Position numbers and translations under genes: made by a program. A stretch of 64,000 nucleotides of DNA, from NCBI GenBank assembly GCA_963794405.1, contig CAWCDP010000007.1:156067-220066 (forward strand). Direction: 5' to 3'. Shown piece by piece: positions 5,691-22,178 of the stretch. Numbering within the stretch: the first letter of the stretch is position 1; every line of letters starts with the position of its first letter. The notes under the pieces are model-generated. The model worked only from the letters and a program-made list of their open reading frames with translations, did no database searches and was not told the origin of the DNA. This DNA comes from an uncultured Actinomycetota bacterium. Lineage in GTDB: Bacteria > Actinomycetota > Actinomycetes > Propionibacteriales > Propionibacteriaceae.

Positions 5691-5749
5691 GGTCCGGTGG
5701 TCTCCGCGCGGCCGGACCCCGCCGCGATCGGGTCCGAATGGGCGGACCC
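5691..5749 (+). terminator. two tandem GC hairpins after the deacetylase gene
   Basis: GGTCCGG(5691-5697)/CCGGACC(5712-5718) and GGGTCCG(5730-5736)/CGGACCC(5743-5749). There is no U-tract, which is common in high-GC actinomycetes. Confidence 0.4.
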
Positions 5750-5766
5750 GTCTAGCATGGCTCCTC

Positions 5767-6420: not shown

Positions 6421-6510
6421 CAGCCGATCTGAGCATCCGGGGCGGGTCCGACCTGGACCCAGGGCGACACGTGGGGTAGGAAGGGCATCCCCCACCCGAG
6501 GAGCTCCCCC

Positions 6511-8346: not shown

Positions 8347-8391
8347 CGCCGACCTCCCGCAGCCGGGGTGCGGCCGGCCGTTCGACGCCGC

Positions 8392-8994
8392 TCAGTCATC
8401 CAGACCGCGAGCGATCAACGCGTCGCCCAGCTGCTGGGCGTGCCGCAGGGCACGGACCAGCAGCGGCACGGCGAACGCCCGCGGACTCGACGGCAGGCCG
8501 CGGGCTCGCTGGGCGTCCCGGAGCTGCTCGGCCAGGCCCAGCACCACGGGGATCGCTCGGATGCTCAGGGCCAGCAGCAGACCGACCCGCTCGGGCGCGA
8601 CCCCGAACCGGCGGAAGGGACCGAGTGCGGCGACCACCACGCCGCTCAGGGCGGTGGTCGTGGTGGTCAGGGTGACGAGTCCCGCGGCGAGCACCAGCAG
8701 CAGGATCGTCACCGTGACCGACACCGCGAGCCGCCAGTCCGCGAGCAGCAGCTGGGCGACCGCGATAGCGGCCAGCACCCACCACAGCGACCGCAGCTGG
8801 CGCAGGGCGAAGCCGAGACCGATCCGGGCCAGCGGATAGAGCAGCAGCACGGCGCACAGGAGCAGGCACCGCTGCCACCACTCCGCCAGCAGCTGACTCA
8901 GCAGCGCCAGTCCGACCAGGCCCAGCACCTTTGCGCCGGCGGGGGCCCGGTGCAGGATCGAACCACCCGGCACGTACAGCCCGAGCAGGCTCAC
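8392..8994 (-). CDS. ecfT: ECF transporter transmembrane (T) component, BioN-like
   Basis: Trimmed to the GTG at 8994 (200 aa). Polytopic CbiQ/EcfT-like protein with an ARG...D C-terminal motif. GTGA overlap with the upstream ATPase. Confidence 0.8.
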   Translation of the reverse strand: MSLLGLYVPGGSILHRAPAGAKVLGLVGLALLSQLLAEWWQRCLLLCAVLLLYPLARIGLGFALRQLRSLWWVLAAIAVAQLLLADWRLAVSVTVTILLLVLAAGLVTLTTTTTALSGVVVAALGPFRRFGVAPERVGLLLALSIRAIPVVLGLAEQLRDAQRARGLPSSPRAFAVPLLVRALRHAQQLGDALIARGLDD

Positions 8995-9686
8995 CGGCCC
9001 GCCCGCATCAGCCAGCGGTAGTGCTCGACGGCTGCCGCCGGTGCCGTGTCGGCCACCAGCCGGCCCTCGTCGAAGACCAGCACCCGGTCGAACCCGGCCA
9101 GCAGCTCGAGGTGGTGGGTGAGCAGCACCACCTGCTCGTCGAGCCCGGCCACCAGATCGGCGATCAGGGCCGCGTTGCGCAGATCGAGCAGGGTGGTCGG
9201 CTCGTCCAGCACGAGCAGCGCCGGCTCGGTGACCAGCACCGAGGCCAGGGCCAGCAGCTGCTTCTGGCCCCCGGACAACAGGTGGGCCGGGTGGTCGGCG
9301 TGCCCGGCCAGACCGAACCGGGTGAGCGCATCGCTCACTCGACCGTCCAGCGCCTGCCCCCGCAGGTCGCGCCGGCGCAGGCTGAAGGCGACGTCCTCGG
9401 CCACCGTGGGCATCACGATCTGCGCGTCGGGGTCGGTGAAGCAGAACCCGACCAGCCGGCGCACCTGCTTGCCGTGGCGCTTGGTGTCGTGCCCGTCCAC
9501 GGTGACGGTCCCGCGGTCGGGGACGACCAGACCGTTCAGCAGTCGCGCGAACGTGGACTTGCCGGAGCCGTTGGCACCGATGACCCCGATCCGGTGCTCG
9601 CTGAGCTCGACCGTGACGTCGTGCAGGACGGGGCGGCGCTGGGCGGCGTAGGTGTGGCTGACACCGTCGACGGTGATCAGCGGCAC
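8991..9686 (-). CDS. ecfA: ECF transporter ATPase (A) component, BioM-like
   Basis: Trimmed to the GTG at 9686 (231 aa). Walker A GANGSGKST, signature LSGGQKQ, Walker B LLVLDEPT. Confidence 0.85.
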   Translation of the reverse strand: MPLITVDGVSHTYAAQRRPVLHDVTVELSEHRIGVIGANGSGKSTFARLLNGLVVPDRGTVTVDGHDTKRHGKQVRRLVGFCFTDPDAQIVMPTVAEDVAFSLRRRDLRGQALDGRVSDALTRFGLAGHADHPAHLLSGGQKQLLALASVLVTEPALLVLDEPTTLLDLRNAALIADLVAGLDEQVVLLTHHLELLAGFDRVLVFDEGRLVADTAPAAAVEHYRWLMRAGR

Positions 9687-10795
9687 GATTCCACCACCAT
9701 CGCGACCCCCTGGCCGCCGCCCACGGCGATCGCCGCCAAGCCCAGCTCGCCGACCCGTCCGGCCCGCACCAGCTGACCGAACAGCCGCACGGCCAGCACC
9801 GCCCCGGACGCACCCCACGGGTGTCCGAGCGCGATCGCCCCGCCCTCGACACAGACCCGGCACGGGTCCAGCTGGAGCTCGTCGCAGCACGCCAGCACCT
9901 GTCCGGCGAACGCCTCGTTGAGCTCGATCACCGCGAGGTGGGCCAGCGTCACCCCAGCGCGGTCGAGGGCCATCCGGACGGCCGGCACGATGCCGAGGCC
10001 GGGCGTCTGCGGTGACACCCCGACGGTGGCCGTCGACAGGATCCGGAGTCCGGGCAGACCCCGCCGCACCCGGTCCGCCTCGCTCACCAGCGCCACCACC
10101 GCCGCCCCGTCGTTGATCCCGCACGAGGTGCCGGCGGTGGCCGTGCCCGCGGCGGAGAAGATCGGTCGCATCCGCGCGAGTCGCTCGCGGGTCAGCCCGG
10201 CCCGCGGTCGCTCGTCGGCGGTCAGACCGCCCACCGGCACGAGCTCGGCGTCGAAGACCCCCCGCCCGGCGGCCGCCACCGCCCGCTGGTGGGAGCGCAG
10301 CGCGTACGCCTCTTGGCGGTCCCGGCCGATCCCCGCCCGGGCCGCCACCTGGTCCGCCGCGGCCCCCATCTCCGGATCCCCCAGCTCCCGCGGCGCGAAG
10401 GCGGCACGCTCGGGCCGGACCGAGGTGGACGCCGACTCCACCCCGCCGGCGAGCACGGCGCGGCCGTCCTCGACCAGAGCGGCGCCGACGACCACCGCCG
10501 CCAGCCCGCTGCCGCACTGCCGGTCGACCGTCAGCCCGGGGACGCCGATGCCCAGCCCGGCCTGCAGAGCGGCGAAGCGGGCCAGGTCACCGCCCGGTCC
10601 GGTGCAGTTGCCCAGCACCACCTCGGTCACCTCGTCGGCCGTCAGTCCGGCGTCGGCGAGCACCGGCGGCAGCACCGCGGCCGCCAGGTCCGCCGCCGTC
10701 AGCGCGGCCAGCCCGTGTCCGGCGGTGCCGATCGGGGTCCGCCGCGCCGCGACGATCGCCACGGAGTTCATCGGGGGCGTCATCTGGGGCGTCAT
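9677..10795 (-). CDS. acetyl-CoA C-acyltransferase (thiolase)
   Basis: 372 aa with VDRQCGSG (active-site Cys), NEAFA, GGAIALGHPWGASG and GGGQG. Confidence 0.85.
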   Translation of the reverse strand: MTPQMTPPMNSVAIVAARRTPIGTAGHGLAALTAADLAAAVLPPVLADAGLTADEVTEVVLGNCTGPGGDLARFAALQAGLGIGVPGLTVDRQCGSGLAAVVVGAALVEDGRAVLAGGVESASTSVRPERAAFAPRELGDPEMGAAADQVAARAGIGRDRQEAYALRSHQRAVAAAGRGVFDAELVPVGGLTADERPRAGLTRERLARMRPIFSAAGTATAGTSCGINDGAAVVALVSEADRVRRGLPGLRILSTATVGVSPQTPGLGIVPAVRMALDRAGVTLAHLAVIELNEAFAGQVLACCDELQLDPCRVCVEGGAIALGHPWGASGAVLAVRLFGQLVRAGRVGELGLAAIAVGGGQGVAMVVESCR

Positions 10796-11763
10796 CGCGG
10801 GCGCAGCCGCGGCCGGACCCTCATGGAGCGAGCCTTGCCCGGTCCACCTTCCCCGTCACCGTGACCGGGAAGCGCCTCGCGCACCGACCAGCGGCGCGGG
10901 CGATGACTGACCGGCAGCAGGCGCCGGGCGACGGCCGGCAGAGCGGTGGCGTCGCCCGGGTCCGTGCAGACCGCCACCAGCACCTGCCCCAGTCGCGGAT
11001 GCGGCCGGCCCACCACCACGACCTCGCCGCCCGCGTACGGTCGCAACGCCGCCTCCACGTCGGACAGGACCACTGTGGCCCCACCGGTGGTGACCGCATC
11101 CGGACGGCCGTCGACCCGGAGCCGACCGCCGGCGGACACCGAGCCGCGATCGCCCACGCTCATCCAGACCCGTCCGTCCCGGGTCGCGGTGCGCAGCACC
11201 GGGGGCACACCCTCCTCACCCGAGCAGAGCCAGGGCGAGCTCACCCACAGCTCCCCGTCGCGCGCCTCGGCGCGCACCTCGGGGAACAACCGCAGGTCGT
11301 CGGCGTCACGTCCCCAGCCGACGAACGACAGCTGGGCCGCGCCGTAGTAGTGGTGCACGGTGTGACCCGCCGCCTCGGCCCGGGCGGCCAGCCCGGACGA
11401 GAGCCGGTCCCCCGCCACCACGACCACGAGCGGACCCTGGTCACCGGTGTCGTCCAGCAGGACGGACAACGCGGACGGGGTGCAGAACGCGTGGCTCGCC
11501 AGCTGGGGATCGTCAACCAGGTCGGCCCCGACGTGGTCGGCCAGGCAGATCGCGTACGTGTTCATGCTCGCCGTCGCCGGCCCCGGGACCCAGGCCCGGC
11601 TGGCGCCGTCCAACGCGCACAACCCGGCCACCACCGGGAAGGAGTCGACCCAGGAGGCCGCGGTCCGCAGCACCCGGCGCGGCCGACCGGAGGTGCCGGA
11701 GGTGGCCAGCCGGATGCTCTCCCCGGCCGCGTACGCCGCCCGGAGCACCGCGGGAGTGATCAC
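10792..11763 (-). CDS. short ANL-superfamily acyl-adenylate/CoA ligase (3'-terminal frameshift)
   Basis: The GTG at 11763 overlaps the bioY stop (GTGA). Motifs: TSGTSGRPRRV P-loop about 20 aa from the start, YYGAAQLS, GDRG...GRLRVDGR. The conserved terminal LPVTVTGKVDR lies in another frame (ORF ending at 10821), with the switch at a CCC run near 10867-10869. Confidence 0.7.
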   Translation of the reverse strand: MITPAVLRAAYAAGESIRLATSGTSGRPRRVLRTAASWVDSFPVVAGLCALDGASRAWVPGPATASMNTYAICLADHVGADLVDDPQLASHAFCTPSALSVLLDDTGDQGPLVVVVAGDRLSSGLAARAEAAGHTVHHYYGAAQLSFVGWGRDADDLRLFPEVRAEARDGELWVSSPWLCSGEEGVPPVLRTATRDGRVWMSVGDRGSVSAGGRLRVDGRPDAVTTGGATVVLSDVEAALRPYAGGEVVVVGRPHPRLGQVLVAVCTDPGDATALPAVARRLLPVSHRPRRWSVREALPGHGDGEGGPGKARSMRVRPRLRPR

Positions 11764-12350
11764 ACCCCGACCGGCTCCCGATCGGCTCGCGAGACCGGCG
11801 GCAGCAGACCGGGCAGCGCCCGGTGCACACCGCGGGCGATCACCGCGGCCAGGACGGCCTTGACGAGGTCTCCGGGCAGGAACACCAGGGCCGCGGTGGC
11901 GGCCTGCGGCAGGCTCAGGTGCAGCACGAGCGCCATCCCCGCGATGCCGAACGCGTACAGCACGACGATGCCGCCGAGGATGTTGACCACGATCATCTTG
12001 GGCAGCGACGCCGCCGCGTCGAAGCGCTCGGTCAGCCAGCCGATGATGAACGCCGCCACCGGGAAGCCGACCAGGAAGCCGACGCTCGGGCCGAAGAAGA
12101 CCCCCAGCCCGCCCCGCCCGCCGGCCAGCAGCGGCAGCCCCATGGCCACCAGCAGGAGGAAGACGAGCACAGCCGCGGTGCCGCGCCAGCGACCGAGCAC
12201 GGAACCCGCGAGCATCACCCCGAGGGTCTGCAGGGTGATCGGGACGGCCGTGCCGGGGACGGCGATCGCGGGGACCAGCCCGAGCGCGGCGATGATCCCG
12301 ACGAAGACGGCGACCAGAGCGAGTCCGGTCGCGGAGAAGGCTCTCGTCAC
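11760..12350 (-). CDS. bioY: biotin transporter S component
   Basis: Trimmed to the GTG at 12350 (196 aa). Sequence ITLQTLGVMLAGSVLG ... GGLGVFFGPSVGFLVGFP ... FLPGDLVKA is typical of BioY. Confidence 0.85.
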   Translation of the reverse strand: MTRAFSATGLALVAVFVGIIAALGLVPAIAVPGTAVPITLQTLGVMLAGSVLGRWRGTAAVLVFLLLVAMGLPLLAGGRGGLGVFFGPSVGFLVGFPVAAFIIGWLTERFDAAASLPKMIVVNILGGIVVLYAFGIAGMALVLHLSLPQAATAALVFLPGDLVKAVLAAVIARGVHRALPGLLPPVSRADREPVGV

Positions 12351-12389
12351 GCTCGGGATCGTACGGCACCAGCGCCGTGTCGGGCGGTG

Positions 12390-12431
12390 ACGACCGCGGG
12401 ATTGCGTCGAGCGTGTAACGACCGCGGGATT
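12390..12431. promoter_or_regulatory. 14-bp direct repeat in the divergent bioY/amidoligase intergenic region
   Basis: ACGACCGCGGGATT occurs at 12390-12403 and 12418-12431, 28 bp apart start to start. This is the only non-coding DNA between the two operons. Confidence 0.35.
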
Positions 12432-12443
12432 AGATTGTCGACG

Positions 12444-14963
12444 GTGAGCGCAGAGCTGACGCTGGGTGCCGAGGAAGAGCTGCACCTGATCGACCTCGAG
12501 AGCTGGAGCCTGTCGGCCCGGGCACCGCAGGTGCTGTCCCGGTTGCCGGGCGACAACTACTCCGCCGAGATCCAACGCACCACCGTCGAGACCAACACCG
12601 ACGTCGTGTCCGGTCTGGGCGAGCTGCGGAGCGAGCTGGTCCGGCTGCGCCGGGGGCTGGCCGAGGTCGCCGCCGCCGAGGGACTCGGCATCGCCTCCGC
12701 CGGCACCGCACCCAGGTCGGTGTTCGCCGACTTCGAGCTCACTGCGACCGGTCGCTACGGCCGGATGCAGGAGCAGTACCGGCTGCTGGTCGACGAGCAG
12801 CTCATCTGCGGCCTGCAGATCCACGTCGGGGTGTCCAACCGCGACCTGGCGGTCCAGATCATGCAGCGGGTGGCCCGGCACCTGCCGATCCTGCTGGCCC
12901 TGTCGGCGAGCTCCCCGTTCTGGAACGGGCAGGACACCGGCTACTCGAGCATCCGCACGATCATCTGGCAACGCTGGCCCAGCGCGGGCACGACCGGTCG
13001 GATCGAGTCGGCCGAGGAGTACGACGAGCTGCTCGACGACCTGATCACCAGCGGGGTGATCGCCGACCGGAAGATGGCCTACTTCGACGTCCGGCCCTCG
13101 GCCCACGCCCCGACCCTGGAGCTCCGGGTCTGCGACGCCTGCCCGATCGTGGACGACGCGATCCTGATCGCCGGGCTGTTCCGGGCTCTGGTGCGCTCGG
13201 CCGAGCACGAGATCGCCGAAGCCAAGCCGTTCGTCCCGTTCCCCGCCCCGATCCACCGGGCGGCGATCTGGCGGGCCGCCCGCGGCGGGATGACCAGCGA
13301 GCTGCTCGACGACAGCCGCCACCCCCGACCGATCCCGGCCGCCCAGGCCGTCCGGGGGCTGCTGGAGCGGCTCCGACCGTTCCTGATCGAGCTGGACGAC
13401 TACGACGAGGTCGAGCAGCTGGTCGCCACCGCCCTGGCCCGGGGCAACTCGGCCGACCGGCAGCGGGCCGCCATGGCCGAGCGTGGCGAGCTGGATGACG
13501 TGGTCGAGCTGGTCGTCAACGAGACCCAGGGACCACCGGAGGGGCTGCCGGCCGAGGTGCCGGAGCTGCGGACCTACCGTCCGCGCGCCGGTGACGAGGC
13601 GGTCGGGCTCGGTCATCGGCCGCGGCCGGTCTACCACGACATCATCGAGCACTTCCGCACGATCGGTTCCGAAGGCTGGCGGCAGGCGGAGGAGCGCCGC
13701 GACGCCTGGACCGACGAGCACGACCTCACCTTCGGCGTCGAGCAGGAGAAGCGACGGTTCGCGGTCGACCTGATGCCGCGGGCGCTGAGTCCGCACGAGT
13801 GGGAGAGTCTGCGGGTCGGCCTGATCCAGCGGGCCCGGGCGATCGAGTCGTTCCTGGCCGACGTGTACGGCGACCAGCGGGTGGTGGCCGACGGGGTGCT
13901 CCCCACCGACCGGGTGGTCGGGTCGCTCGGCTGGAGACCGGAGGCCACCAGGCTGCCGGCCGGCACCGTACGGGCGCCGATCATGGGCTTCGACCTGGTC
14001 CGCAACGAGTTCGGCGGCTGGCGGGTGCTGGAGGACAACGTCCGCAACCCGAGCGGTGCTGCGTACGCGATCGCGATCCGGGACCTGCTGGACGCGGTCC
14101 TGCCGGACCTCCCCCGGCCCGCGGGCCTGCTGAAGCCGGCGGACGCCCTGCCGCGGATCCGCGCCACCCTGCTGCGACACGCCAGACCCGGCACCGCCGC
14201 GGCCGTGTTCTCGACCGGACCGCACGCCTCCGCCTGGTTCGAGCACCGGCTGCTGGCCGAGCGGGGCGGTCTGCTGCTGGTCACCGCCGACGATCTGGAC
14301 GTCCGGGACGGGCGGGTGCGGCACCGGGTCAGTGACGAGGTGATCGGCGCGCTCTACCTGCGACTCGATGACGAGCTGGTGGACGTGACCGACGGCGAGG
14401 GCCGCGCCATCGGCGCCGAGGTGTTCGAGGTCGCCGTCGCCGGGGACGTGGTGCTGGCCAACGCCCCGGGCAACGGCGTGGCCGACGACAAGGCCATGTA
14501 CTGCTACGTGCCCGAGCTGATCGCCTACTACCTGCAGGAGCGACCGCTGCTGGAGTCGGTGCCGACCTACCGGACCTCCGACGAGACCGAGCGACGGATC
14601 GTGCTGGAGCGGGTCGGCGAGCTGGTCACCAAGCCGGTCGACGGCCACGGGGGTCAGGGCGTGCTGATCGGACCGGACGCCTCGGCGTCGGCGGTCGCGC
14701 ACCGGCGGGCCGAGATCGCCGCCGACCCGGCCGGCTGGGTGGCCCAGGAGGTCGTGGCGCTGTCCTCACACCCCACCTTCGACGACGGTGTGCTGCAGCC
14801 CCGGCACGTGGATCTGCGCGCTTTCGTGTACCTTCGCGGAACGGCGCCGGGCGATTGCGAGCTCGCGCCGCTGGGACTCACCCGGGTCGCCCCCGAAGGC
14901 AGTCTGGTCGTCAACTCGTCCCGGGGCGGCGGCGCGAAAGACACCTGGATCATCAACGAGTGA
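12444..14963 (+). CDS. fusion protein: GCS2/YbdK-type carboxylate-amine ligase + circularly permuted type-2 ATP-grasp
   Basis: GTG at 12444 (a TTG at 12435 is also possible), 839 aa. The N-terminal half has GAEEELHLID, QIHVGV and YFDVRPS (GCS2). The C-terminal half has VLANAPGNGVADDKAMY, VTKPVDGHGGQGVLIGP and VNSSRGGGAKDTW (CP ATP-grasp). Confidence 0.85.
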   Translation: MSAELTLGAEEELHLIDLESWSLSARAPQVLSRLPGDNYSAEIQRTTVETNTDVVSGLGELRSELVRLRRGLAEVAAAEGLGIASAGTAPRSVFADFELTATGRYGRMQEQYRLLVDEQLICGLQIHVGVSNRDLAVQIMQRVARHLPILLALSASSPFWNGQDTGYSSIRTIIWQRWPSAGTTGRIESAEEYDELLDDLITSGVIADRKMAYFDVRPSAHAPTLELRVCDACPIVDDAILIAGLFRALVRSAEHEIAEAKPFVPFPAPIHRAAIWRAARGGMTSELLDDSRHPRPIPAAQAVRGLLERLRPFLIELDDYDEVEQLVATALARGNSADRQRAAMAERGELDDVVELVVNETQGPPEGLPAEVPELRTYRPRAGDEAVGLGHRPRPVYHDIIEHFRTIGSEGWRQAEERRDAWTDEHDLTFGVEQEKRRFAVDLMPRALSPHEWESLRVGLIQRARAIESFLADVYGDQRVVADGVLPTDRVVGSLGWRPEATRLPAGTVRAPIMGFDLVRNEFGGWRVLEDNVRNPSGAAYAIAIRDLLDAVLPDLPRPAGLLKPADALPRIRATLLRHARPGTAAAVFSTGPHASAWFEHRLLAERGGLLLVTADDLDVRDGRVRHRVSDEVIGALYLRLDDELVDVTDGEGRAIGAEVFEVAVAGDVVLANAPGNGVADDKAMYCYVPELIAYYLQERPLLESVPTYRTSDETERRIVLERVGELVTKPVDGHGGQGVLIGPDASASAVAHRRAEIAADPAGWVAQEVVALSSHPTFDDGVLQPRHVDLRAFVYLRGTAPGDCELAPLGLTRVAPEGSLVVNSSRGGGAKDTWIINE

Positions 14964-14975
14964 AGGGAAAGCACC

Positions 14976-16760
14976 GTGTGCGGACTCGCCGGAGAGATCA
15001 GGTTCGACGGTCGTACGGCTGACGTCGCCGCCTGTGAGCGGATGAACGACTGCCAGGAGGCACGGGGCCCGGACGGTTCGGGCATCTGGGCCCGTGGCCC
15101 GGTGGCCCTGGGCCATCGCCGGCTGTCGATCATCGACCTGAGCGTGGCCGGGTCCCAGCCGATGGTCGACTCGCCGCTCGGTCTGAGCGTCGTCTTCAAC
15201 GGCTGCATCTACAACTACCAGCAGCTGCGGTCCGAGCTGGAGGGAGCGGGCTTCCGGTTCTTCTCCACCTCCGACACCGAGGTGATCGGCAAGGCGTACG
15301 CGCACTGGGGACTGTCCTGCGTCGAGCACTTCCTCGGGATGTTCGCCTTCGCGATCTACGAGCACGTGAGCGGGCGGCTGGTCCTGGGTCGGGATCGGCT
15401 GGGGATCAAGCCGCTCTACCTCGACCACACCCGGGACCGGCTGCGCTTCGCCTCCAGCCTGCCGGCGCTGCTCGCCGCCGGCGGCGTGGACACCTCGGTG
15501 GACATGACGGCCCTGTCGTACTACATGACGTTCCACTCGGTGGTGCCGGCGCCGCGGACGATCCTGACCGGGGTCACCAAGCTGCCGCCCGCGACCGTAC
15601 GGGTGATCGAGGCGGACGGGACCGTCGGCAGCGACTGGCTCTACTGGGAGCCCGACTTCTCCCGCGACCCCGACAGGGCCGACTGGAGTGACCGGGACTG
15701 GGAGGAGGCGCTGCTGTCCTCGCTGCGGACCGCCGTCGACCGCCGGATGGTGGCCGACGTCCCGGTCGGGGTGCTGCTCTCGGGTGGCATCGACTCCAGC
15801 CTGGTGGTGGCCCTGCTCGCCGAGGCCGGTCAGCACGACCTGAAGACCTTCAGCATCGGGTTCGAGTCCGCCGGCGGGGAGTCCGGGGACGAGTTCGAGT
15901 ACTCGACGCTGGTGGCGGAGCGCTTCGGCACCGACCACCACAAGATCCCGATCCCCTCGGACCGGCTGCTGCCCGGCATCGACGCCGCGATCGGGGCGAT
16001 GAGCGAGCCGATGGTCAGCCACGACTGCGTGGCGTTCTACCTGCTCAGTCAGGAGGTCTCCCGACACGTCAAGGTGGTGCAGTCCGGGCAGGGAGCCGAC
16101 GAGGTGCTCGGCGGCTACGACTGGTATCCGCCACTGGCCTCGGTGCCGCGCGCGGACGCCGTGGAGGCGTACTCGTCGGTCTTCTTCGACCGCCGCTGGG
16201 CCGCCCTGGGCGAGGTCCTGAACCCGGAGTGGATGGCCTCGGTCGACGAGCCGTCCGCCTTCATCACCGACCGGTTCGGACGGGTCGGGGCGGAGACGTC
16301 GGTGGACGCCGCGCTGCGCAACGACACCACGATCATGCTGGTCGACGACCCGGTGAAGCGGGTCGACAACATGACCATGGCCGCCGGCCTGGAGGCCCGG
16401 GTGCCGTTCCTGGACCACGAGCTGGTCGAGCTGGCCGGCACGATCCCGCCGGGACTGAAGCTGTCCGACGGGGGCAAGGGCGTGCTGAAGCGGGCCGCCC
16501 GCGGTGTCGTGCCGGACGAGGTGATCGACCGGACCAAGGGCTACTTCCCGGTGCCGGCCATCCGCCAGCTCGAGGGTCCCTATCTCGACCGGGTGCGGAC
16601 CGCGCTGACCGACTCCGCCGCCCGGGACCGCGGGCTGTTCAACCCCGCCCTGGTCGACCGGTTGCTGGCCGACCCGAACACGACGCGGACGACGCTGGGC
16701 TCCAACGCCCTGTGGCAGCTCGCCCTGCTGGAGATGTGGCTGCAGCACCATGGCATCTAG
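14976..16760 (+). CDS. asparagine-synthase-family glutamine amidotransferase (AsnO / N-acetylglutaminylglutamine amidotransferase-like)
   Basis: MCGLAGE with a Cys2 nucleophile, HRRLSIIDLS, and the PP-loop SGGIDSS. 594 aa. Confidence 0.88.
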   Translation: MCGLAGEIRFDGRTADVAACERMNDCQEARGPDGSGIWARGPVALGHRRLSIIDLSVAGSQPMVDSPLGLSVVFNGCIYNYQQLRSELEGAGFRFFSTSDTEVIGKAYAHWGLSCVEHFLGMFAFAIYEHVSGRLVLGRDRLGIKPLYLDHTRDRLRFASSLPALLAAGGVDTSVDMTALSYYMTFHSVVPAPRTILTGVTKLPPATVRVIEADGTVGSDWLYWEPDFSRDPDRADWSDRDWEEALLSSLRTAVDRRMVADVPVGVLLSGGIDSSLVVALLAEAGQHDLKTFSIGFESAGGESGDEFEYSTLVAERFGTDHHKIPIPSDRLLPGIDAAIGAMSEPMVSHDCVAFYLLSQEVSRHVKVVQSGQGADEVLGGYDWYPPLASVPRADAVEAYSSVFFDRRWAALGEVLNPEWMASVDEPSAFITDRFGRVGAETSVDAALRNDTTIMLVDDPVKRVDNMTMAAGLEARVPFLDHELVELAGTIPPGLKLSDGGKGVLKRAARGVVPDEVIDRTKGYFPVPAIRQLEGPYLDRVRTALTDSAARDRGLFNPALVDRLLADPNTTRTTLGSNALWQLALLEMWLQHHGI

Positions 16761-18696
16761 GCCGACCCGCGGGGGCACGGACCCGCGGTCGGCCGCCGCG
16801 GACCTCGGTGCGGAGCTCGTGCGGGCGTGGGGCAGCTGGGGACCCACCCTGAGTCCGCACGCCGAGCAGCTGGCCTTCCTCAGCGACCGTCACGGCAGTC
16901 CGCAGGTGTTCGTCTCCGACCTGCGGATGGACGGCAGCGTCGACCGACCGACCTTGATCACGCTCACCGAGGACCCGGTCGTCTCGGTCAGCTGGTCCGC
17001 CGACGGTGCCTGGCTGGCCTGTGCGGTGGCCACCGACGGCGGCGTCCGGACCCAGGTCTGGGTGGTGCGGCCCGACGGCCGGGACGCCCGACGGATCGCC
17101 GGTTCGGTCGATCAGCACGCCGAGCTGGGTCCCTGGACCCGCAGCGGTCATCGGGTCACGGTGATCATCCCCGACTACGAGGGCGACGGTCGCTCGCACT
17201 GCTTCCTGGCCGACCCGACGACCGGCGAGCTGCATCCGCTGGCCGTCGGTGACCTGCTCGGCGTGCTCGACCTGTCGGTCGACGAGCACCTGGTCATCCT
17301 CAAGGACGGGCAGCGGGGCAAGCAGTTCTGCGTGGTGGTGGACCGGGTCGCCGACCTCGACCACCCGCTGCTGCCCTATCCGGCGGCCGGCTCGACCGAC
17401 GTGGCCATCATCCGTCCCGCCCCAGCCGGCGACGTGTCACCGCTGGTCGCCTACGTCTGCACCGACGCCGGGCTCCCCCGGCGTCAGCTCGTCGCGGTCC
17501 CCCTCGGCGTCGAGGGCTGGCGCGGGGTGTCGGGGGTGCTGGCGGCCCGGGAGGACGCCGAGCTGGAGAGCCTGGACGCCGACGACGCCGGGCGCCAGCT
17601 GCTGCTGGTCTGGAACGTGGCCGGGCGGAGCGAGCTGGAGCTGTTCGACACCGTCACCGGAGTCGGCCGGTACCTGCCCGGGATGCCCGGCACCGTCGCG
17701 TCCGGCGCCCTGCTGAGCCGCGACGGCCGCCGGGTGATCCTGAGCGTCGAGGGTCCGCACCGACCCCGCGAGCTGTGGTGCCTGAGCACCCGGACGCTGC
17801 GGTGGACCAGGGTCGGGGCGGTGCCGTTCCGGGCCCCGCACGACCTGGTCGAGCCGGAGCTGATCCGCTACCCCGCCCACGACGGGCTCGAGCTCACGGC
17901 CTGGCTCTACCGGGTGCCGGGCCGCAGCGGGCCCGGACCGGCGATGCTGTCGCTGCACGGTGGACCCGAGGCGCAGGAGCGGCCGGTGTTCTCCCCGCAG
18001 CACCAGGCGATGGTGGCCGCGGGCATCGCCGTGCTGGCGCCGAACATCCGCGGCTCCTCCGGCTTCGGTCGCGCCTTCGTGCACGCCGACGACGTGCACG
18101 GTCGACGGGATGCGTTCGAGGACGTGATCACCAGTGCCGACGAGCTGGTCCGCCTCGGGGTCGCCGAGCAGAGCGCGATCGCGATCACCGGTCGCTCGTA
18201 CGGGGGCTACCTCACCCTGGCCGGCCTGGCCTTCTATCCCGGCTACTTCGCTGCCGGTGTGGACATCTGCGGGATGTCGGACCTGCACACCTTCTACGCC
18301 GACACCGAACCGTGGATCGCGGCCGCGGCGGTCAGCAAGTACGGGGACCCGGTCGCCGACGCCGGGCTGCTCGCGGCGATCTCCCCGCTGCACCGGGCCG
18401 AGAACATCGACGTGCCGCTGCTCGTCGTGCACGGTGAGCACGACACCAACGTCCCCATCGGCGAGGCGCACCAGATGGTGGCGGCGCTGCGTGATCTCGG
18501 GCGGCCGGTCGAGTACCTGCAGCTGGACGGCGAGGGCCACGAGTACCGGCGGGCCGACTCGCGCACCGTGTTGATCACCACCATGCTGGCGTTCCTGACC
18601 CGCGTGCTCACTGCAGACCGGGAGCTCGCCCCGGGCCAGGTGCTCGCTCCGGGTCAGGTGCTCGCTCCGGGTCAGGTGCTCGCCGGGGGCGGCTGA
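16750..18696 (+). CDS. S9 family serine peptidase (beta-propeller + alpha/beta hydrolase)
   Basis: 648 aa with a TolB-like propeller N-terminal half. Catalytic elements GRSYGGY, VVHGEHDTNVP and GEGHEY. The start overlaps the amidotransferase 3' end by 11 nt. Confidence 0.85.
   Translation: MASRPTRGGTDPRSAAADLGAELVRAWGSWGPTLSPHAEQLAFLSDRHGSPQVFVSDLRMDGSVDRPTLITLTEDPVVSVSWSADGAWLACAVATDGGVRTQVWVVRPDGRDARRIAGSVDQHAELGPWTRSGHRVTVIIPDYEGDGRSHCFLADPTTGELHPLAVGDLLGVLDLSVDEHLVILKDGQRGKQFCVVVDRVADLDHPLLPYPAAGSTDVAIIRPAPAGDVSPLVAYVCTDAGLPRRQLVAVPLGVEGWRGVSGVLAAREDAELESLDADDAGRQLLLVWNVAGRSELELFDTVTGVGRYLPGMPGTVASGALLSRDGRRVILSVEGPHRPRELWCLSTRTLRWTRVGAVPFRAPHDLVEPELIRYPAHDGLELTAWLYRVPGRSGPGPAMLSLHGGPEAQERPVFSPQHQAMVAAGIAVLAPNIRGSSGFGRAFVHADDVHGRRDAFEDVITSADELVRLGVAEQSAIAITGRSYGGYLTLAGLAFYPGYFAAGVDICGMSDLHTFYADTEPWIAAAAVSKYGDPVADAGLLAAISPLHRAENIDVPLLVVHGEHDTNVPIGEAHQMVAALRDLGRPVEYLQLDGEGHEYRRADSRTVLITTMLAFLTRVLTADRELAPGQVLAPGQVLAPGQVLAGGG
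18622..18684 (+). repeat. in-frame 18-bp tandem repeat (about 3.5 copies, PGQVLA) at the peptidase 3' end
   Basis: CCGGG(C/T)CAGGTGCTCGC(T/C) occurs at 18631, 18649 and 18667, preceded by a partial copy. Confidence 0.9.
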
Positions 18697-18716
18697 GATC
18701 AGCCGACCCGGCCCCA

Positions 18717-19097
18717 TCAGCCGACCAGACGGAGCCGGATCGGGCCCTTGGCCGTCGACGGGTCGACCACGTGACCGCCCTGGGTGATCTCGATCCGGCC
18801 GGCCGTCACCAGCCGCCGGGCGGCACGACGGACGGGTTCCATCAGCGTCCGCCAGTCGTCGTCGGTGCTCATCCCGCGAGCCACCTCGGAGGGGCAGATG
18901 GTGGCCCCGGAGCGACGCTCGGCGAGGAGGTCGATGATGGCCCGCTCCAGCCGCTCGTCCTCGGGGGTGAGGCCATGGCGGCGGCAGCCCGCCGAGCAGT
19001 AGCGCACCTGGTCCCAGTCGCGCTCCCACTTCTTGCGCCACTCGATCGTGCGGCCGCAGACCACGCAGGTCTTGGTCGGCTTGGGAGAGGACGCCAC
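18717..19097 (-). CDS. DUF2256 zinc-ribbon + DUF3253 domain protein
   Basis: [29 protein letters not shown] is the DUF2256 signature as I remember it. The C-terminal half resembles DUF3253. Confidence 0.7.
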
Positions 19098-19171
19098 CGA
19101 CTCAGTATGCGCGGTCGATAAACGGCGGCCGGCCGGTCCGCGAGGGCGTTGGGCTCACCGGTCGCCGGCGA

Positions 19172-19507
19172 TCACCAGGCGTCGGTGGTCCGGATCTCGA
19201 GCATCACGCAACCGTCGTCGGTGCGGTAGGGGCCGTGGGGCATGCCCGGACGGCGCGAGGCGTACCAACCGGGGCCGAAGGTCTGGGCCAGGCTCAGGTC
19301 GGTGAGGGACCCCTCCAGCAGGTAGACCTCCTCGTGGAACTGGTGCCGCACGACCCCACCGGCGGAGGTGTCGTGACCCGCCGGCCAGCGCGCGATCCGG
19401 GTCAGGGTCACCCCGTCCTCACCGCGGCTCAGCACCCGTTGCTCGACGGCGCCGTCGCGCTGCCACGGCAGGTCGTCGACTCGGAAGAACTCGAACTCCT
19501 CGCGCAT
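19172..19507 (-). CDS. cupin domain protein
   Basis: Trimmed to MREEFEFF at 19507 (111 aa). Beta-barrel motif HQFHEEVYLLEG ... PHGPY. Confidence 0.7.
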   Translation of the reverse strand: MREEFEFFRVDDLPWQRDGAVEQRVLSRGEDGVTLTRIARWPAGHDTSAGGVVRHQFHEEVYLLEGSLTDLSLAQTFGPGWYASRRPGMPHGPYRTDDGCVMLEIRTTDAW

Positions 19508-19581
19508 GGGCGCAGTCTGGCACCGATCGACCGGCCCCGGTGGCCGGCCGTTCGTCGCGGAACGGCCGGCCGCGGAGAACG

Positions 19582-21316
19582 TCAGCGACCGACCGCGTAG
19601 CCCTGCGCGCCCCGGGAGTTCGCACCGGCCTTGAGCCAGCCGCCCTCCCGCGCCACGGCACTGACCCGACCCAGCGACCAGTCCCCCGTGACGTCCAGCC
19701 GGTGCCCACGCTCGGCGAGCGCCGCCCGGACCTCGGCCGGGTGCCGCGACTCCAGCCGCAGGTGCGCCTGGAGGAAACCGTGGGGATGGAAGGAGTCGAT
19801 CATCGCGGCGGTGTCGAACGACGGCCGGTCGATGGCCTGCTGCAGGTTGTCGCCGCTGTGCAGCAGGTTCAGCAGCACGTGCAGCGACCACTGGTCCTGG
19901 CTGTCACCGCCCGGGGTGCCGAAGGCCAGCCAGGGCTCCCCGTCGCGCAGGGCGAGCGACGGTGACAGCGTCGTCCGCGGCCGCATCCCGGGTCGCAGCG
20001 TGTTCGGCAGGCCCTCGGTCAGGGCGAACATCTGTCCCCGGGTGCCCAGGCAGAAGCCGAGCTCAGGGATGGTCGGGGACGACTGCAACCAGCCGCCGCT
20101 GGGTGTCGCGGAGATCATCAGCCCGTTCGCGTCCACCACGTCGAGGTGGCAGGTGTCACCGCGGGGCGGACCGAGGGTCGGCTCGCCCCCGCCGGGGGTC
20201 CAGCCCTCGGCCGTCTCGACCAGGTACGGCGGCAGGACCGGCGCGCGCCCTTCAGGTGACCCCGGCCGGAGGTCCGGTGAGGCCGTGTCGGTGATCAGGC
20301 GAGCGCGCTGCGACGCGTACGCCGAGGACAGCAGCGTGGTCAGCGGCACGTCGGTCACCCGCGGATCGCCGTACCAGGCGTCGCGGTCGGCGAAGGCCAG
20401 CTTGCTGGCCTCGGTGATCAGGTGGATCCACTCCGCACTGCCGGGCTCGAGCTCGGCCAGACCCGCTGCCTCGAGCAGGGCGAGCTGCTGCAGCATCACC
20501 GGCCCCTGCCCCCAGGGACCGGTCTTGGCCACCGTCACACCGCCGTAGGTGCCGGTCACCGGGTCCTCGACGCTCGCCGCCCAGGAGGCCAGGTCCTGAC
20601 CGGTCAGCAGCCCGTCGTGGCTCTCGGGCGAACCGGTCGACGGCGTCGGCGACGAACCCCTCGTACCAGGCTCGACGGGCCGCCTCGAGCTGCTCCTCCC
20701 GGTCGGGGCCGGCCGCTTCGGCCTCGGCCACGAGCCGCCGGTAGGTGGCGGCCAGCGTGGGGTTCCGGAACCGCTCGTTCGCCCGTCGGGGTCGTCCCTC
20801 GGCCAGCCAGAGCGCCGCCGACGTCGGCCAGCGGCTCCGGAAGTGGTCGGCCGAGCTGTTCACCGTGGTCGCCGCCGTCGGCAGCAGCGGGTGCCCGCGG
20901 TCGGCCAGTCCGATGGCGGGTTCGAGCACGTCGGCCAGCGACCAGGTGCCCCAGCCCGCCAACAGGGTCAGCCACCCGCCGAAGGCACCCGGCACCACGG
21001 CGGCCAGCAGACCCGTACCGGGGATGACGTCGACCCCGCGCTGCCGCATGGCCGCGGGGGTCGCGGCCGCCGGAGACACGCCCTGCCCGCAGATCACCCG
21101 GACGGCCGCCACATCGGGATCCCAGAGCAGCACCGGCAGGTCGCCGCCCGGACCGTTGAGGTGCGGCTCCACCACCTGCAGGGCGAAACCGGCGGCGACG
21201 GCCGCGTCGGCGGCGTTGCCGCCCCGCTCCAGCACCCCCATCCCGACGGCGGAGGCGATCCAGTGGGTGCTGGCGACCATCCCGAGGTCGCCGACGAGCT
21301 CAGGCCGTGTGGTCAT
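19582..21316 (-). pseudogene. cytoplasmic gamma-glutamyltransferase-family gene split by a +1 frameshift
   Basis: ORFs 20252..21316 and 19582..20559 are the N- and C-terminal parts of one GGT-fold protein (no signal peptide; GDTCHLDVVD nucleophile region). Frames rejoin as VDRFA-ESHDGLLTGQDLASW if one base is removed from the GGG run at 20626-20628. Confidence 0.8.
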
Positions 21317-22178
21317 CCAGCCAGTCGATCACGAGGGTGGTGATCTCGTCACGGTTGGTCTCGTTGAAGATCTCGTGCCGGGCCTGGGAGAACAGTCGGA
21401 CGGTGACGTCGTCGAGGCCAGCCTCCCGGTAGCGCTGACCGACGGTCTCCACCAGCGCGCCGCCACCGGCCAGCGGATCGGCGTCGCCGGAGACGATCAG
21501 GATCGGCAGGTCCGTGCGGATCCCGGCCAGCACGGCACCCTCGGCGAGCCGACTCGCCGATCCGAACATCTGCTGCATCACGTCCGGCGAGGCCTCGAAA
21601 CCGCACCAGGGATCGGCGACGTAGGCGTCGACCTCGGCCTCGTCGCGGCTGAGCCACTCGTAGCCCGTCCGGTGCACGAACCCGGCGTTGAACGCGCTGA
21701 GATCGCCGCTGGACTCGCCCCCACCCGCCGCCAGGCCCTGCGCCATCAGGTCCATCGCCGTGGTGCCGGACAGCGCCACCCCGGCCCAGACGTCGGAGTG
21801 GTCGACGATCGCCTGCTGGGCGGCGAAGGACCCCATCGAGTGAGCGACCAGGAACAGCGGCAGCCCGGGATCGCGGCCGGCGACCGCCCGACCGACGGCG
21901 GCCAGATCGGCCACCAGGCCGTCCCAGCCGGCCGCGCCGAACGAGCCCAGGGCGTCGGCCGCCTCACCGGTCGCTCCGTGGCCGCGGTGGTCGTGGGCCC
22001 GCACCAGGTAGCCGGCGGCGTTGAGTGCGGTGGCCAGCCGGTCGTAGCGTCCCGCGTGCTCGGCCAGGCCATGCGCGATCTGCACCACACCGCGAGGATC
22101 CTCGACCTCGCTCCAGCTGTAGGTGGTCAGGGACAGGTCGCCGGCTGCGGACGGCATCGTCGCCGTGGAGAAGCTCAT
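21300..22178 (-). CDS. alpha/beta hydrolase (lysophospholipase/monoacylglycerol-lipase-like)
   Basis: 292 aa with HGLAEHAGRY and the nucleophile elbow AHSMGS. The start overlaps the GH43 stop by 4 nt. Confidence 0.8.
   Translation of the reverse strand: MSFSTATMPSAAGDLSLTTYSWSEVEDPRGVVQIAHGLAEHAGRYDRLATALNAAGYLVRAHDHRGHGATGEAADALGSFGAAGWDGLVADLAAVGRAVAGRDPGLPLFLVAHSMGSFAAQQAIVDHSDVWAGVALSGTTAMDLMAQGLAAGGGESSGDLSAFNAGFVHRTGYEWLSRDEAEVDAYVADPWCGFEASPDVMQQMFGSASRLAEGAVLAGIRTDLPILIVSGDADPLAGGGALVETVGQRYREAGLDDVTVRLFSQARHEIFNETNRDEITTLVIDWLDDHTA

Follow-up and report, generated by a model that had tools for sequence, protein, structure and literature searches.

A conserved actinobacterial operon linking a GCS2/permuted ATP-grasp fusion to an AsnO ortholog and an S9 peptidase

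What does an operon make in which an amidotransferase of the AsnO family stands between a two-domain ligase and a serine peptidase? To our knowledge, the pathway to N-acetylglutaminylglutamine amide (NAGGN), an osmoprotectant whose synthesis high osmolarity induces, is the only one that gives this amidotransferase family a known role, and nearly all work on it has been done in Proteobacteria. In the stretch of actinobacterial DNA analyzed here (64 kb, referred to as the window), ORF coordinates and profile searches showed that three tightly packed genes on the + strand fill positions 12444-18696. A preliminary description of this DNA had read them as a fused ligase, an AsnB-type Cys2 amidotransferase and an S9 peptidase with a NAGGN-like logic. 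We examined the domains of these genes, their conservation in other genomes and their relation to known systems.

Gene structure and domain identities

The features of the locus are as follows.

12431-12436, + strand: -10 promoter hexamer TAGATT, read from the sequence, 7 nt 5′ of the GTG start
12444-14963, + strand: ORF1, fused ligase of 839 aa, with a YbdK/GCS2 N-terminal and a circularly permuted type-2 ATP-grasp C-terminal half (Pfam, NCBIfam and PDB searches)
12444-13529, + strand: GCS2/YbdK-like domain, residues 1-362 of ORF1 (PF04107, NF010041, 1r8g)
13722-14963, + strand: circularly permuted (CP) ATP-grasp type 2 domain, residues 427-839 of ORF1 (PF14403, 3n6x)
14976-16760, + strand: ORF2, 594 aa, AsnO ortholog, a glutamine-hydrolyzing AsnB-fold amidotransferase (TIGR03104, identity to S. 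meliloti AsnO)
16750-18696, + strand: ORF3, 648 aa, S9 serine peptidase, beta-propeller plus alpha/beta hydrolase (Pfam, PDB, ortholog alignment)

ORF2 (N-terminus M-C-G-L-A-G) begins 13 nt past the last base of ORF1 and overlaps ORF3 by 11 nt; re-reading the ORFs returned the same coordinates and junctions as first noted. Of 82 orthologous loci, 72 have a TAnnnT hexamer 6-8 nt (in a few cases up to 10 nt) ahead of the start codon, with a chance rate roughly estimated at 5% per locus in DNA of this composition. Because this -10 hexamer is conserved in position, the start at 12444 is independently supported. The spacing between hexamer and start codon is typical of a leaderless transcript, and the operon is probably leaderless. 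No RNA family was detected by an Rfam scan of positions 5000-23000, and a scan for consensus promoters and terminators gave nothing above chance within the operon.

The GCS2 model PF04107 covers residues 7-280 of ORF1 (E = 5e-50; 171 bits, cut-off 21), and NF010041, a glutamate--cysteine ligase by name, covers residues 5-362 (356.5 bits, cut-off 332). In a PDB sequence search, YbdK (1r8g) matched residues 3-354 (E = 2e-28). Eighteen homologs all share the G8-A-E-E-E-L-H14 motif as well as residues such as H127, E226 and R228. The C-terminal half matches CP_ATPgrasp_2 (PF14403) end to end (residues 445-816, profile positions 1-374 of 374; 355 bits, E = 6e-106). Its closest solved relative is the circularly permuted ATP-grasp 3n6x, annotated as glutathionylspermidine-synthase-like (residues 427-838, E = 6e-83). 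These Pfam and PDB matches bear out the joining of two ligase domains in one 839-aa polypeptide. The same three-Pfam architecture was found in all 120 best homologs, and a relative of the fusion is encoded in at least 356 species genomes. An AlphaFold2 model of the fusion was of only moderate quality (pLDDT 70, pTM 0.57), its GCS2 domain containing loops of low confidence. We also asked whether the fusion is a known EgtA- or glutathione-type ligase. It scored 20.3 bits against the EgtA equivalog cut-off of 370.8 (TIGR03444) and missed every NCBIfam GshA equivalog cut-off; neither egtB nor egtD is adjacent to it among the flanking genes of the window.

ORF2 matches TIGR03104 over its full length with 952.4 bits (cut-off 570.1) and is 60.6% identical to S. 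meliloti AsnO, also over the full length, compared with at most 35% for asnB paralogs. It contains GATase_7 and Asn_synthase (E = 2e-92) and carries Cys2 and an SGGxDS motif (residues 269-274). On these scores, ORF2 is a true AsnO ortholog at the equivalog level, and because of this the analogy to NAGGN is stronger than the preliminary description had it. The S. meliloti enzyme has reportedly been characterized both genetically and biochemically (by Sagot et al. in 2010). In an identity matrix, fusion-linked and Ngg-linked AsnOs shared 57-65% of residues and the S. meliloti and Azospirillum AsnOs 62-64%; the change of partners has therefore brought no extra divergence.

In ORF3, Peptidase_S9 (PF00326) spans residues 414-621 (E = 1e-42, 146 bits), together with a weak PD40 propeller repeat. 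The intact Ser/Asp/His context noted earlier holds up, as Ser483 (in G-R-S-Y-G-G), Asp565 and His597 are invariant in 10 orthologs of 36-63% identity. The best PDB matches, in which the catalytic half alone aligns, are acylaminoacyl peptidases (5l8s with E = 1e-42, then 4hxe, 5yzm and 1ve6). ORF3 thus looks like an S9C acylaminoacyl peptidase, a subfamily assignment taken from these best matches only.

Conservation and surroundings of the trio

Of 73 species loci, 68 have AsnO after the fusion (median gap 37.5 nt), and in 61 of these 68 the S9 gene follows in turn. Order, strand and gaps (a few to a few hundred nt, or overlaps) are kept in about 90% or more of the evaluable loci, which come from many genera, so that the trio is indeed co-conserved. 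It spans at least seven orders, namely Propionibacteriales, Geodermatophilales, Kineosporiales, Micrococcales, Streptosporangiales, Frankiales and Kitasatosporales. The trio was also found in Streptosporangium, Parafrankia, Streptomyces sp. 846.5 and one metagenome contig, where the fusion is 46-48% identical, and relatives occur in Dietzia and Corynebacterium.

Several exceptions were detected. The fusion lacks an AsnO gene within 10 kb at five loci (L038, L056, L076, L079 and L080) and an S9 gene at two (L032 and L039), and in Thermomonospora an EgtC-like amidohydrolase takes the place of the S9 peptidase. In Nonomuraea and Embleya, a stand-alone GCS2 gene accompanies AsnO and S9, with no ATP-grasp at the locus; the ATP-grasp step would therefore be either dispensable there or encoded elsewhere. 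A search for stand-alone CP ATP-grasps gave 157 matching records, and neither genus is represented in the 60 of them that were listed. The idea of two ligation steps is thus not universal. In Dietzia there are two fusions and an S9 gene, and after the latter comes an M20D N-acyl-amino-acid amidohydrolase; the N-alpha-acyl-glutamine aminoacylase 6slf is among the PDB relatives of this enzyme. AsnO is missing there, and the pair of fusion and S9 peptidase can therefore work without amidation.

The preliminary description had also pointed to a neighborhood enriched in gamma-glutamyl chemistry. The gamma-glutamyltransferase (GGT) gene at 6511-8346 was confirmed, and the N-terminus of its product resembles a signal peptide. 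The supposed GGT-like gene at 19582-21316 consists of two overlapping ORFs in different frames and is a single frame in four relatives; this second GGT is frameshifted in the window. GGT genes in the vicinity of the trio are confined to the closest Microlunatus relatives and one other locus (L001-L007, L048 and L011), in L011 directly upstream. Their presence is local synteny, together with the insertion of a BioY/ECF-transporter block. Among 137 nearest-neighbor ORFs from 36 diverse loci, no Pfam family occurred in more than four ORFs (GNAT reached four). In the same 36-locus survey, gamma-glutamyl-hydrolase neighbors were single cases without statistical enrichment, and thiol-related genes (reductases, transferases) did not recur. 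With GGT confined to a few loci and no recurring neighbor family, the enrichment is not a conserved property of the system. A conserved acetyltransferase partner was ruled out by tblastn against the window and the loci and by the 137-ORF survey. Clustering of flanking ORFs found recurrent neighbors within Propionibacteriales only (trp genes, hisI, gatAB and a DinB-like 217-aa protein), and these reflect housekeeping synteny, not functional partnership.

Relation to known systems

The known NAGGN cassette, asnO-ngg(-M42 peptidase), corresponds to TIGR03104, TIGR03103 and TIGR03106 and occurs on S. meliloti pSymB and in P. aeruginosa (PA3459-3461); we also saw the classical AsnO, Ngg and 'NAGGN system M42 peptidase' arrangement in Azospirillum. 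Both cassette and trio combine orthologous AsnOs (61% identity) with a two-domain ligase and a peptidase in tight same-strand linkage. Ngg and the fusion are alike in placing a capping domain N-terminally and a peptide-bond-forming ATP-grasp C-terminally. Beyond this, the two systems differ. Ngg joins a GNAT to a classical cyanophycin-synthetase-like ATP-grasp, whereas ORF1 joins GCS2 to a permuted ATP-grasp, without detectable similarity between them. The peptidase is a metallo-enzyme (M42) in the cassette and a serine enzyme (S9) here, gene order is AsnO-ligase-peptidase there and ligase-AsnO-peptidase here, and the acetyl-CoA-dependent step of the cassette has no equivalent in the trio. In tblastn searches (E ≤ 1e-3), S. 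meliloti and Azospirillum Ngg had no match in the 64-kb window or in 89 loci; likewise, the Azospirillum M42 peptidase had no match in the window or loci. The difference in ligase that had been pointed out at first is therefore borne out, and it extends to the peptidase. From these sequence comparisons, the trio is best read as the actinobacterial counterpart of the NAGGN cassette, with two of three components replaced by non-homologous enzymes. No characterized product of the fused architecture was known to the preliminary description, and the searchable literature yielded none for fusion-type loci, nor any metabolomic or expression data on them.

Other systems share single traits with the trio. 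GshF (GshAB) of Streptococcus and Listeria likewise combines an N-terminal gamma-glutamyl-type ligase with a C-terminal ATP-grasp in one polypeptide and carries out two ATP-dependent ligation steps in a row on a short peptide, as the fusion may. However, its domains are of the GshA and D-Ala-D-Ala-ligase-like ATP-grasp types, and it has no amidotransferase or peptidase partner. Membership of the fusion in the GshF family was rejected, as the domain families differ and the NCBIfam GshA/GshF equivalogs were missed; the likeness is architectural only. YbdK, EgtA and haloarchaeal GshA are GCS2 ligases that stand alone, whereas the N-terminal half of ORF1, although it matches PF04107 and 1r8g along its entire extent, shares its polypeptide with a second ligase.

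Stand-alone COG2308 ATP-grasps show 36-43% identity to the C-terminal half. These belong to an uncharacterized triad of CP ATP-grasp, alpha-E and transglutaminase, which shares the Pfam model of the fusion and for which a role in ligating peptides or proteins has been predicted; amidoligases are reportedly the subject of a 2009 paper by Iyer et al. The closest stand-alone relative, from Tsukamurella, adjoins alpha-E and transglutaminase genes. In ORF1, by contrast, the ATP-grasp domain shares its chain with GCS2 and has AsnO and S9 as linked genes, and neither alpha-E nor transglutaminase was present among the flanking genes of the window or in the 36-locus neighbor survey. Finally, the S9 peptidase, through its best solved relatives, resembles the S9C member of the catabolic pair of acylpeptide hydrolase (APEH) and M20 aminoacylase. 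An M20D partner was seen in the Dietzia lineage only, and not in this window. The S9 and M20D genes of Dietzia mirror this pairing, which is known for N-acylated peptides.

Proposed pathway, alternatives and meaning

Since AsnO was kept while ligase and peptidase were exchanged, a related small peptide amide is probably made, one that contains Gln and is blocked at its N-terminus, perhaps by a gamma-glutamyl cap. By analogy with NAGGN synthesis, we infer the following route. The fused ligase would stand in for Ngg, with its domains in matching N-to-C order. Its GCS2 domain would use ATP to link the alpha-amine of an amino acid to a carboxylate. The likeliest carboxylate would be the gamma-carboxyl of glutamate, the group that all characterized GCS2 members known to us activate. 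The gamma-glutamyl cap would then serve as the N-terminal block, in place of the acetyl group from the GNAT domain of Ngg. The permuted ATP-grasp may subsequently add a C-terminal residue, probably glutamine, through a peptide bond; the alpha-carboxylate of this residue would be adenylated by the AsnO ortholog and amidated with ammonia freed from glutamine at Cys2. The predicted product is a di- or tripeptide amide, small, without net charge and rich in nitrogen, e.g. gamma-Glu-Gln-Gln-NH2 or gamma-Glu-Gln-NH2. It could function as a compatible solute or a metabolite of the stress response, and removal of its N-blocked residue by the S9C-like peptidase might recycle it. A gamma-glutamyl bond is weakly hinted at by the EgtC-like gene in Thermomonospora, a GGACT gene near the trio at L092 and the upstream GGT at L011. 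We put the probability that the trio is a self-contained, probably leaderless NAGGN counterpart that makes a small peptide amide in this way at roughly 0.5.

The trio might instead make authentic NAGGN (N-acetyl-Gln-Gln-NH2), with the fusion replacing Ngg, GCS2 using ATP to ligate acetate to glutamine (or an unlinked acetyltransferase supplying N-acetylglutamine) and the ATP-grasp forming the Gln-Gln bond. AsnO at the equivalog level, no more diverged from Ngg-linked AsnOs than those are among themselves, argues for an unchanged AsnO substrate and could equally well point to NAGGN itself. N-acetylated peptides are the substrates of acylaminoacyl peptidases, the enzymes that ORF3 resembles, an aminoacylase is added at the Dietzia locus, and PGAP names the AsnOs of fusion-type loci NAGGN amidotransferases. 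Nevertheless, we consider this product unlikely: a GNAT is absent from the operon and not enriched nearby, and no GCS-superfamily enzyme is known to us to activate acetate. NAGGN production by an actinobacterium, Micromonospora provocatoris (PMC8146288), speaks for it; however, Micromonosporaceae such as Salinispora have been grouped with Pseudomonas and Sinorhizobium as bearers of a NAGGN cluster (PMC11537254), which would fit a classical Ngg.

An analogue of GshF would yield a gamma-Glu-Cys-X thiol tripeptide, amidated by AsnO to a glutathione-amide-like compound. The shared domain order (gamma-glutamyl ligase family, then ATP-grasp), the name of the matched NCBIfam subfamily, the annotation of 3n6x and the sporadic GGT, GGACT and EgtC-like genes, all concerned with gamma-glutamyl bonds, are compatible with this, and glutathione amide does occur in nature with, as far as we know, no assigned amidating enzyme. 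Yet the known AsnO substrate ends in glutamine, not glycine, the GshA and EgtA equivalog cut-offs were missed, thiol-related genes do not recur nearby, and Actinobacteria generally use mycothiol and ergothioneine, which makes such a product improbable. We regard as highly improbable a peptide-tagging or protein-modifying ligase (cf. PafA, RimK and the CP ATP-grasp/alpha-E/transglutaminase system) whose tag the peptidase trims or removes. The constant partner of the fusion is the ortholog of a free-dipeptide enzyme, beta-propeller S9 peptidases are known to admit short peptides only, and no alpha-E, transglutaminase, tag or target gene lies beside the fusion. The canonical triad that surrounds the nearest stand-alone relatives of the permuted ATP-grasp (Tsukamurella) would agree with tagging, as would the placing of the protein ligase PafA in the GCS2 superfamily (PMC2588565). 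Chance adjacency of three unrelated genes, with AsnO an ordinary asparagine synthetase and the other two in separate roles, could draw on the five loci without a nearby AsnO and the two without S9, but it is hardly credible given an arrangement kept in about 90% or more of loci, across orders where all other neighbors differ, and an AsnO set apart from asnB paralogs (60% or more against 35% or less).

In a large part of Actinomycetota, the orthologous amidotransferase is accompanied by an entirely different fused ligase and another kind of peptidase. Automatic annotation by PGAP labels the product NAGGN from the AsnO gene alone, and genome-mining papers repeat this label without evidence; we suspect that the 'NAGGN' class of antiSMASH likewise relies on one gene. 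In this operon, non-orthologous displacement has exchanged two of three components while the core enzyme stayed, a clear natural case that is useful for studying how small-peptide pathways get rebuilt and as a source of new ATP-dependent peptide ligases for biocatalysis. The operon also offers a testable handle on YbdK-type GCS2 ligases and COG2308 permuted ATP-grasps, two families with no known physiological role. Only tentatively do we suggest that the trio makes a new class of metabolites, gamma-glutamyl-capped amidated glutamine peptides, which may serve actinobacteria widely as a compatible solute or a store of nitrogen. In that case, many of the loci annotated as NAGGN in Actinomycetota would carry the wrong product name, and both ligase families would gain their first physiological function.

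Gene layout and domain composition of the trio

Three plus-strand genes span 12444-18696, arranged exactly as the preliminary description had reported. They encode a fusion ligase, in which a YbdK/GCS2 carboxylate-amine ligase is joined to a circularly permuted type-2 ATP-grasp, an amidotransferase, and an S9 peptidase. The closest relatives of the window (G+C content ~72%) are Microlunatus genomes, the fusion being 92-94% identical to its counterparts in Microlunatus MAGs and M. aurantiacus.

Genes of the trio and their immediate neighbours in the window
12444-14963, plus strand: gene 1, fusion ligase (839 aa, GTG start)
14976-16760, plus strand: gene 2, AsnO-type amidotransferase (594 aa; first base 13 nt past the end of gene 1)
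16750-18696, plus strand: gene 3, S9 peptidase (648 aa; 11-nt overlap with gene 2)
Start near 12350, end at 11760, minus strand: BioY-like gene, upstream of and divergent from the trio
18717-19097, minus strand: DUF2256/DUF3253 gene, downstream of and converging on the trio

Since the BioY-like gene upstream is divergent and the DUF2256/DUF3253 gene downstream is convergent, the trio constitutes a separate unit. The BioY-like gene heads a minus-strand block that includes an AMP-ligase-like gene, a thiolase, and ECF-transporter genes. A consensus scan detected no promoter-like or terminator-like sites above chance inside the trio, and no Rfam family matched within positions 5000-23000 of the window.

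Pfam searches located PF04107 (GCS2) at residues 7-280 of the fusion and PF14403 (CP_ATPgrasp_2) at residues 445-816, with the whole of the latter profile covered. The N-terminal 362 residues were assigned to the YbdK-like subfamily NF010041 of NCBIfam (356.5 bits vs. a cut-off of 332). When sequences from the PDB were searched, residues 3-354 matched YbdK (1r8g) and residues 427-838 matched 3n6x, the sole ATP-grasp protein of this type with a solved structure. Two further identities were considered with NCBIfam models: EgtA was ruled out (20 bits vs. a cut-off of 371), and all GshA equivalogs were excluded.

The second gene had initially been taken for an AsnB-type amidotransferase. Its Cys2 Ntn glutamine-amidotransferase and Asn_synthase domains (Pfam) bear out the proposed fold; the generic AsnB label had to be given up, as the protein scored 952 bits against TIGR03104, the N-acetylglutaminylglutamine amidotransferase equivalog (cut-off 570). 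In tblastn searches of plasmid records it was 60-66% identical over its full length to AsnO from S. meliloti pSymB, Azospirillum, and others, and a clean gap separated these from ordinary asnB genes (at most 35% identity). Judged by its sequence, the middle gene is an AsnO and not a generic AsnB.

The third protein carries a Peptidase_S9 domain at residues 414-621 (Pfam), and Ser483, Asp565, and His597 were invariant across ten orthologues with 36-63% identity. Its best solved relative was 5l8s (1e-42, PDB sequence search), followed by Pyrococcus PH0594, the Deinococcus acyl-peptide hydrolase, and the Aeropyrum acylamino-acid-releasing enzyme. These top relatives are acylaminoacyl peptidases, which take the N-acylated residue off short blocked peptides. 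Orthologues could be aligned only to about residue 620, so the C-terminal tail is lineage-specific. In the window, an 18-nt tandem repeat (3.4 copies, 18624-18684) encodes APGQVL three times in this tail.

Conservation across genomes and variant loci

A pattern scan with one genome per species yielded 356 genomes with a relative of the fusion, of which the best 80 loci were analyzed with 10-kb flanks. AsnO was located directly downstream of the fusion on the same strand in 68 of the 73 loci with enough sequence (median gap 37.5 nt). The S9 peptidase followed downstream in 61 of 68 loci, in 58 of them immediately after AsnO. The proposal that the three genes form a linked set thus withstood the comparison on which it had been staked beforehand. 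Genera among the best 80 loci included Microlunatus, Friedmanniella, Quadrisphaera, Kineococcus, Blastococcus, and Geodermatophilus, as well as many Microbacteriaceae. The full trio was also found with more distant fusions (46-48% identity) in Streptosporangium roseum, Parafrankia discariae, Streptomyces sp. 846.5, and a metagenome contig. At E ≤ 1e-30, a representative library contained 1525 cluster representatives; of the clusters listed, about nine were full-length fusions, with identities down to 37% and with Streptacidiphilus, Corynebacterium qintianiae, and Dietzia as named members.

ORF clustering revealed recurrent flanking ORFs (trp genes, hisI, gatAB, and a DinB-like protein) only in Propionibacteriales, which is plain synteny. 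Among the 137 ORFs that flank the trio most closely in 36 diverse loci, no Pfam family occurred more than four times. GNAT acetyltransferases accounted for four of the 137, which was taken to be background for actinobacterial genomes. As no other neighbour was conserved, the trio is self-contained.

In many Friedmanniella and Microlunatus relatives, the fusion is immediately preceded by a DinB/mycothiol-maleylpyruvate-isomerase-like gene (217 aa, 5767-6420 in the window); in the window and its closest relatives, ~6 kb separate the two. This stretch (within 5767-12350) contains a secreted GGT and, on the minus strand, BioY, AMP-ligase-like, thiolase, and ECF ATPase/T component genes, and looks like an insertion. 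Such an insertion explains the enrichment in gamma-glutamyl chemistry that had been ascribed to the neighbourhood and that, for GGT, is confined to the closest Microlunatus relatives and one other locus. The cytoplasmic GGT-like gene described at 19582-21316 (minus strand) was recovered as a region, but not as a single intact gene: it is split into overlapping ORFs (20252-21316 and 19582-20559) in different frames. The two halves share one frame in four orthologous loci (L002, L004, L005, and L007), which indicates a 1-nt frameshift in the window copy, either a pseudogene or an assembly error.

Several loci departed from the trio layout. In Nonomuraea gerenzanensis (L082, 6833-11749) and Embleya (L083), a stand-alone 385-aa GCS2 lies directly upstream of AsnO and S9, and the locus lacks an ATP-grasp domain. 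AsnO of Nonomuraea shares 79% identity with that of S. roseum, a bearer of the full fusion, which suggests secondary loss of the ATP-grasp half. The variant itself suggests a dipeptide version, with one ligation followed by amidation. The PLSDB 'plasmid' records NZ_LT559118.1 (11.85 Mb) and NZ_CP108785.1 (5.7 Mb), from Nonomuraea and Embleya, are chromosome-sized replicons and almost unannotated. In Dietzia sp. SL131 (L090, 4351-12654), two tandem fusion paralogues are followed by S9 and an M20D N-acyl-amino-acid amidohydrolase. As AsnO is absent from this locus, the ligase-peptidase pair does not depend on amidation. The M20D protein is a TIGR01891 member whose PDB relatives include YxeP, ILL2, and the Corynebacterium N-alpha-acyl-glutamine aminoacylase. 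N-acylated peptides are broken down in two steps, by an acylpeptide hydrolase and then an aminoacylase, a pair that the S9 and M20D genes of Dietzia reproduce.

Further variants comprise (i) Thermomonospora amylolytica (L087, 9857-10621), with an EgtC-like Ntn amidohydrolase in place of S9 (223 bits against TIGR03442, cut-off 218.65) and no other ergothioneine genes found near the locus; (ii) L092, with an M28/M20 peptidase and a GGACT (gamma-glutamyl cyclotransferase-like) gene just downstream; (iii) L011, with a GGT gene abutting the fusion; (iv) five loci with the fusion and neither AsnO nor S9 within 10 kb; and (v) two Blastococcus loci without S9. In S. roseum (L086, 12411-13523), a second, stand-alone GCS2 gene is located 0.7 kb downstream of the trio.

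Promoter region of the fusion gene

A TAGATT hexamer (12431-12436) is located 7 nt ahead of the GTG start of the fusion. Of 82 orthologous loci, 72 have a TAnnnT hexamer that precedes the fusion start codon by 6-8 nt (up to 10 nt in a few); by a rough estimate for DNA of this composition, chance would place one there in ~5% of loci. This conserved placement supports the annotated fusion start, and also the view that the trio is transcribed from a promoter of its own. Actinobacterial leaderless transcripts usually show a -10 hexamer just before the start codon, and the arrangement here implies a leaderless trio mRNA.

Thirteen Propionibacteriales loci (L008-L015, L017, L019, L020, L028, and L037; 0.12 expected by chance) share a direct repeat, GTnA(C/T)-n6-GTAAC, at a position overlapping the -35 region. 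It lies ~39-40 nt upstream of the fusion start, or at -70 in L008 and L014, where the start is probably mis-set. The motif resembles sites of OmpR-family regulators (GlnR, AfsQ1, and MtrA). Only its GTAAC half is retained in the window (12415-12419). The BioY-like gene and the fusion are separated by a 93-nt divergent promoter region, which also contains a 14-nt direct repeat, ACGACCGCGGGATT (12390-12403 and 12418-12431), its second copy extending into the -10 hexamer. In close relatives, L001 among them, only one copy is present.

Relation to the NAGGN cassette and predicted product

Azospirillum lipoferum yielded the classical order of AsnO, Ngg, and 'osmoprotectant NAGGN system M42 family peptidase', and S. 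meliloti the AsnO-Ngg pair. In the trio AsnO is kept, whereas the fusion and the S9 peptidase would fill the roles of Ngg and the M42 peptidase, neither of which gave a match at E ≤ 1e-3 in the 64-kb window or any fetched locus. With these two of three sequence-defined membership features missing, the trio was not filed as an NAGGN locus, despite the PGAP label of its AsnO (NAGGN amidotransferase). By analogy, it would nonetheless work like the NAGGN cassette. In a 12-sequence matrix, fusion-adjacent and Ngg-adjacent AsnOs were 57-65% identical, the same level as between S. meliloti and Azospirillum (62-64%). AsnO has thus diverged no more than expected where its partner changed, which argues for the same or a very similar substrate beside the fusion and beside Ngg.

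Ngg acetylates glutamine with its N-terminal GNAT domain and forms the dipeptide with its C-terminal ATP-grasp. We infer that the fusion replaces it domain for domain, in unchanged order. Using ATP, the N-terminal GCS2 domain would make an amide bond and thereby block the N-terminus. A gamma-glutamyl cap appears the most likely block because, to our knowledge, all characterised GCS2 enzymes activate the gamma-carboxyl of glutamate. The ATP-grasp would form the second bond, AsnO would amidate the C-terminal alpha-carboxylate, and the S9C-like peptidase would recycle the compound. The acylaminoacyl-peptidase kinship, the Dietzia S9/M20D pair, and family M42, which includes archaeal 'deblocking aminopeptidases', point to an N-blocked peptide as the turnover substrate; NAGGN is such a peptide. 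GGT, EgtC-like, and GGACT proteins represent three different families that cleave gamma-glutamyl bonds. Their sporadic presence beside the trio, in single cases and without statistical enrichment, is compatible with such a bond.

The main rival reading, that the product is authentic NAGGN, is favoured by the undiminished conservation of AsnO; against it stand the lack of any acetyltransferase and the GCS-superfamily chemistry. Less likely are a glutathione-amide-like thiol as the product, a protein-tagging system and, given the linkage of the three genes across genomes, their mere adjacency.

A Frankia genomics paper ran into the same difficulty, reporting asnO at >60% identity to known genes and 'Ngg' at <15%, with a dipeptidase gene between (PMC5563000). 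In Parafrankia, the true neighbour upstream of asnO is the fusion. Micromonospora provocatoris MT25, an actinobacterium, makes NAGGN (PMC8146288), and 'NAGGN' clusters have been called core in Micromonospora, Salinispora, and Jiangella (PMC11537254, PMC13608877). Our search found no paper describing or characterising the fusion-type trio; the amidoligase survey of Iyer et al. 2009, beyond the reach of that search, may mention it. The trio, which is widespread, has so far been neither characterised nor correctly labelled; through it, the function of YbdK-type GCS2 and COG2308 ATP-grasp enzymes could be approached directly by experiment.
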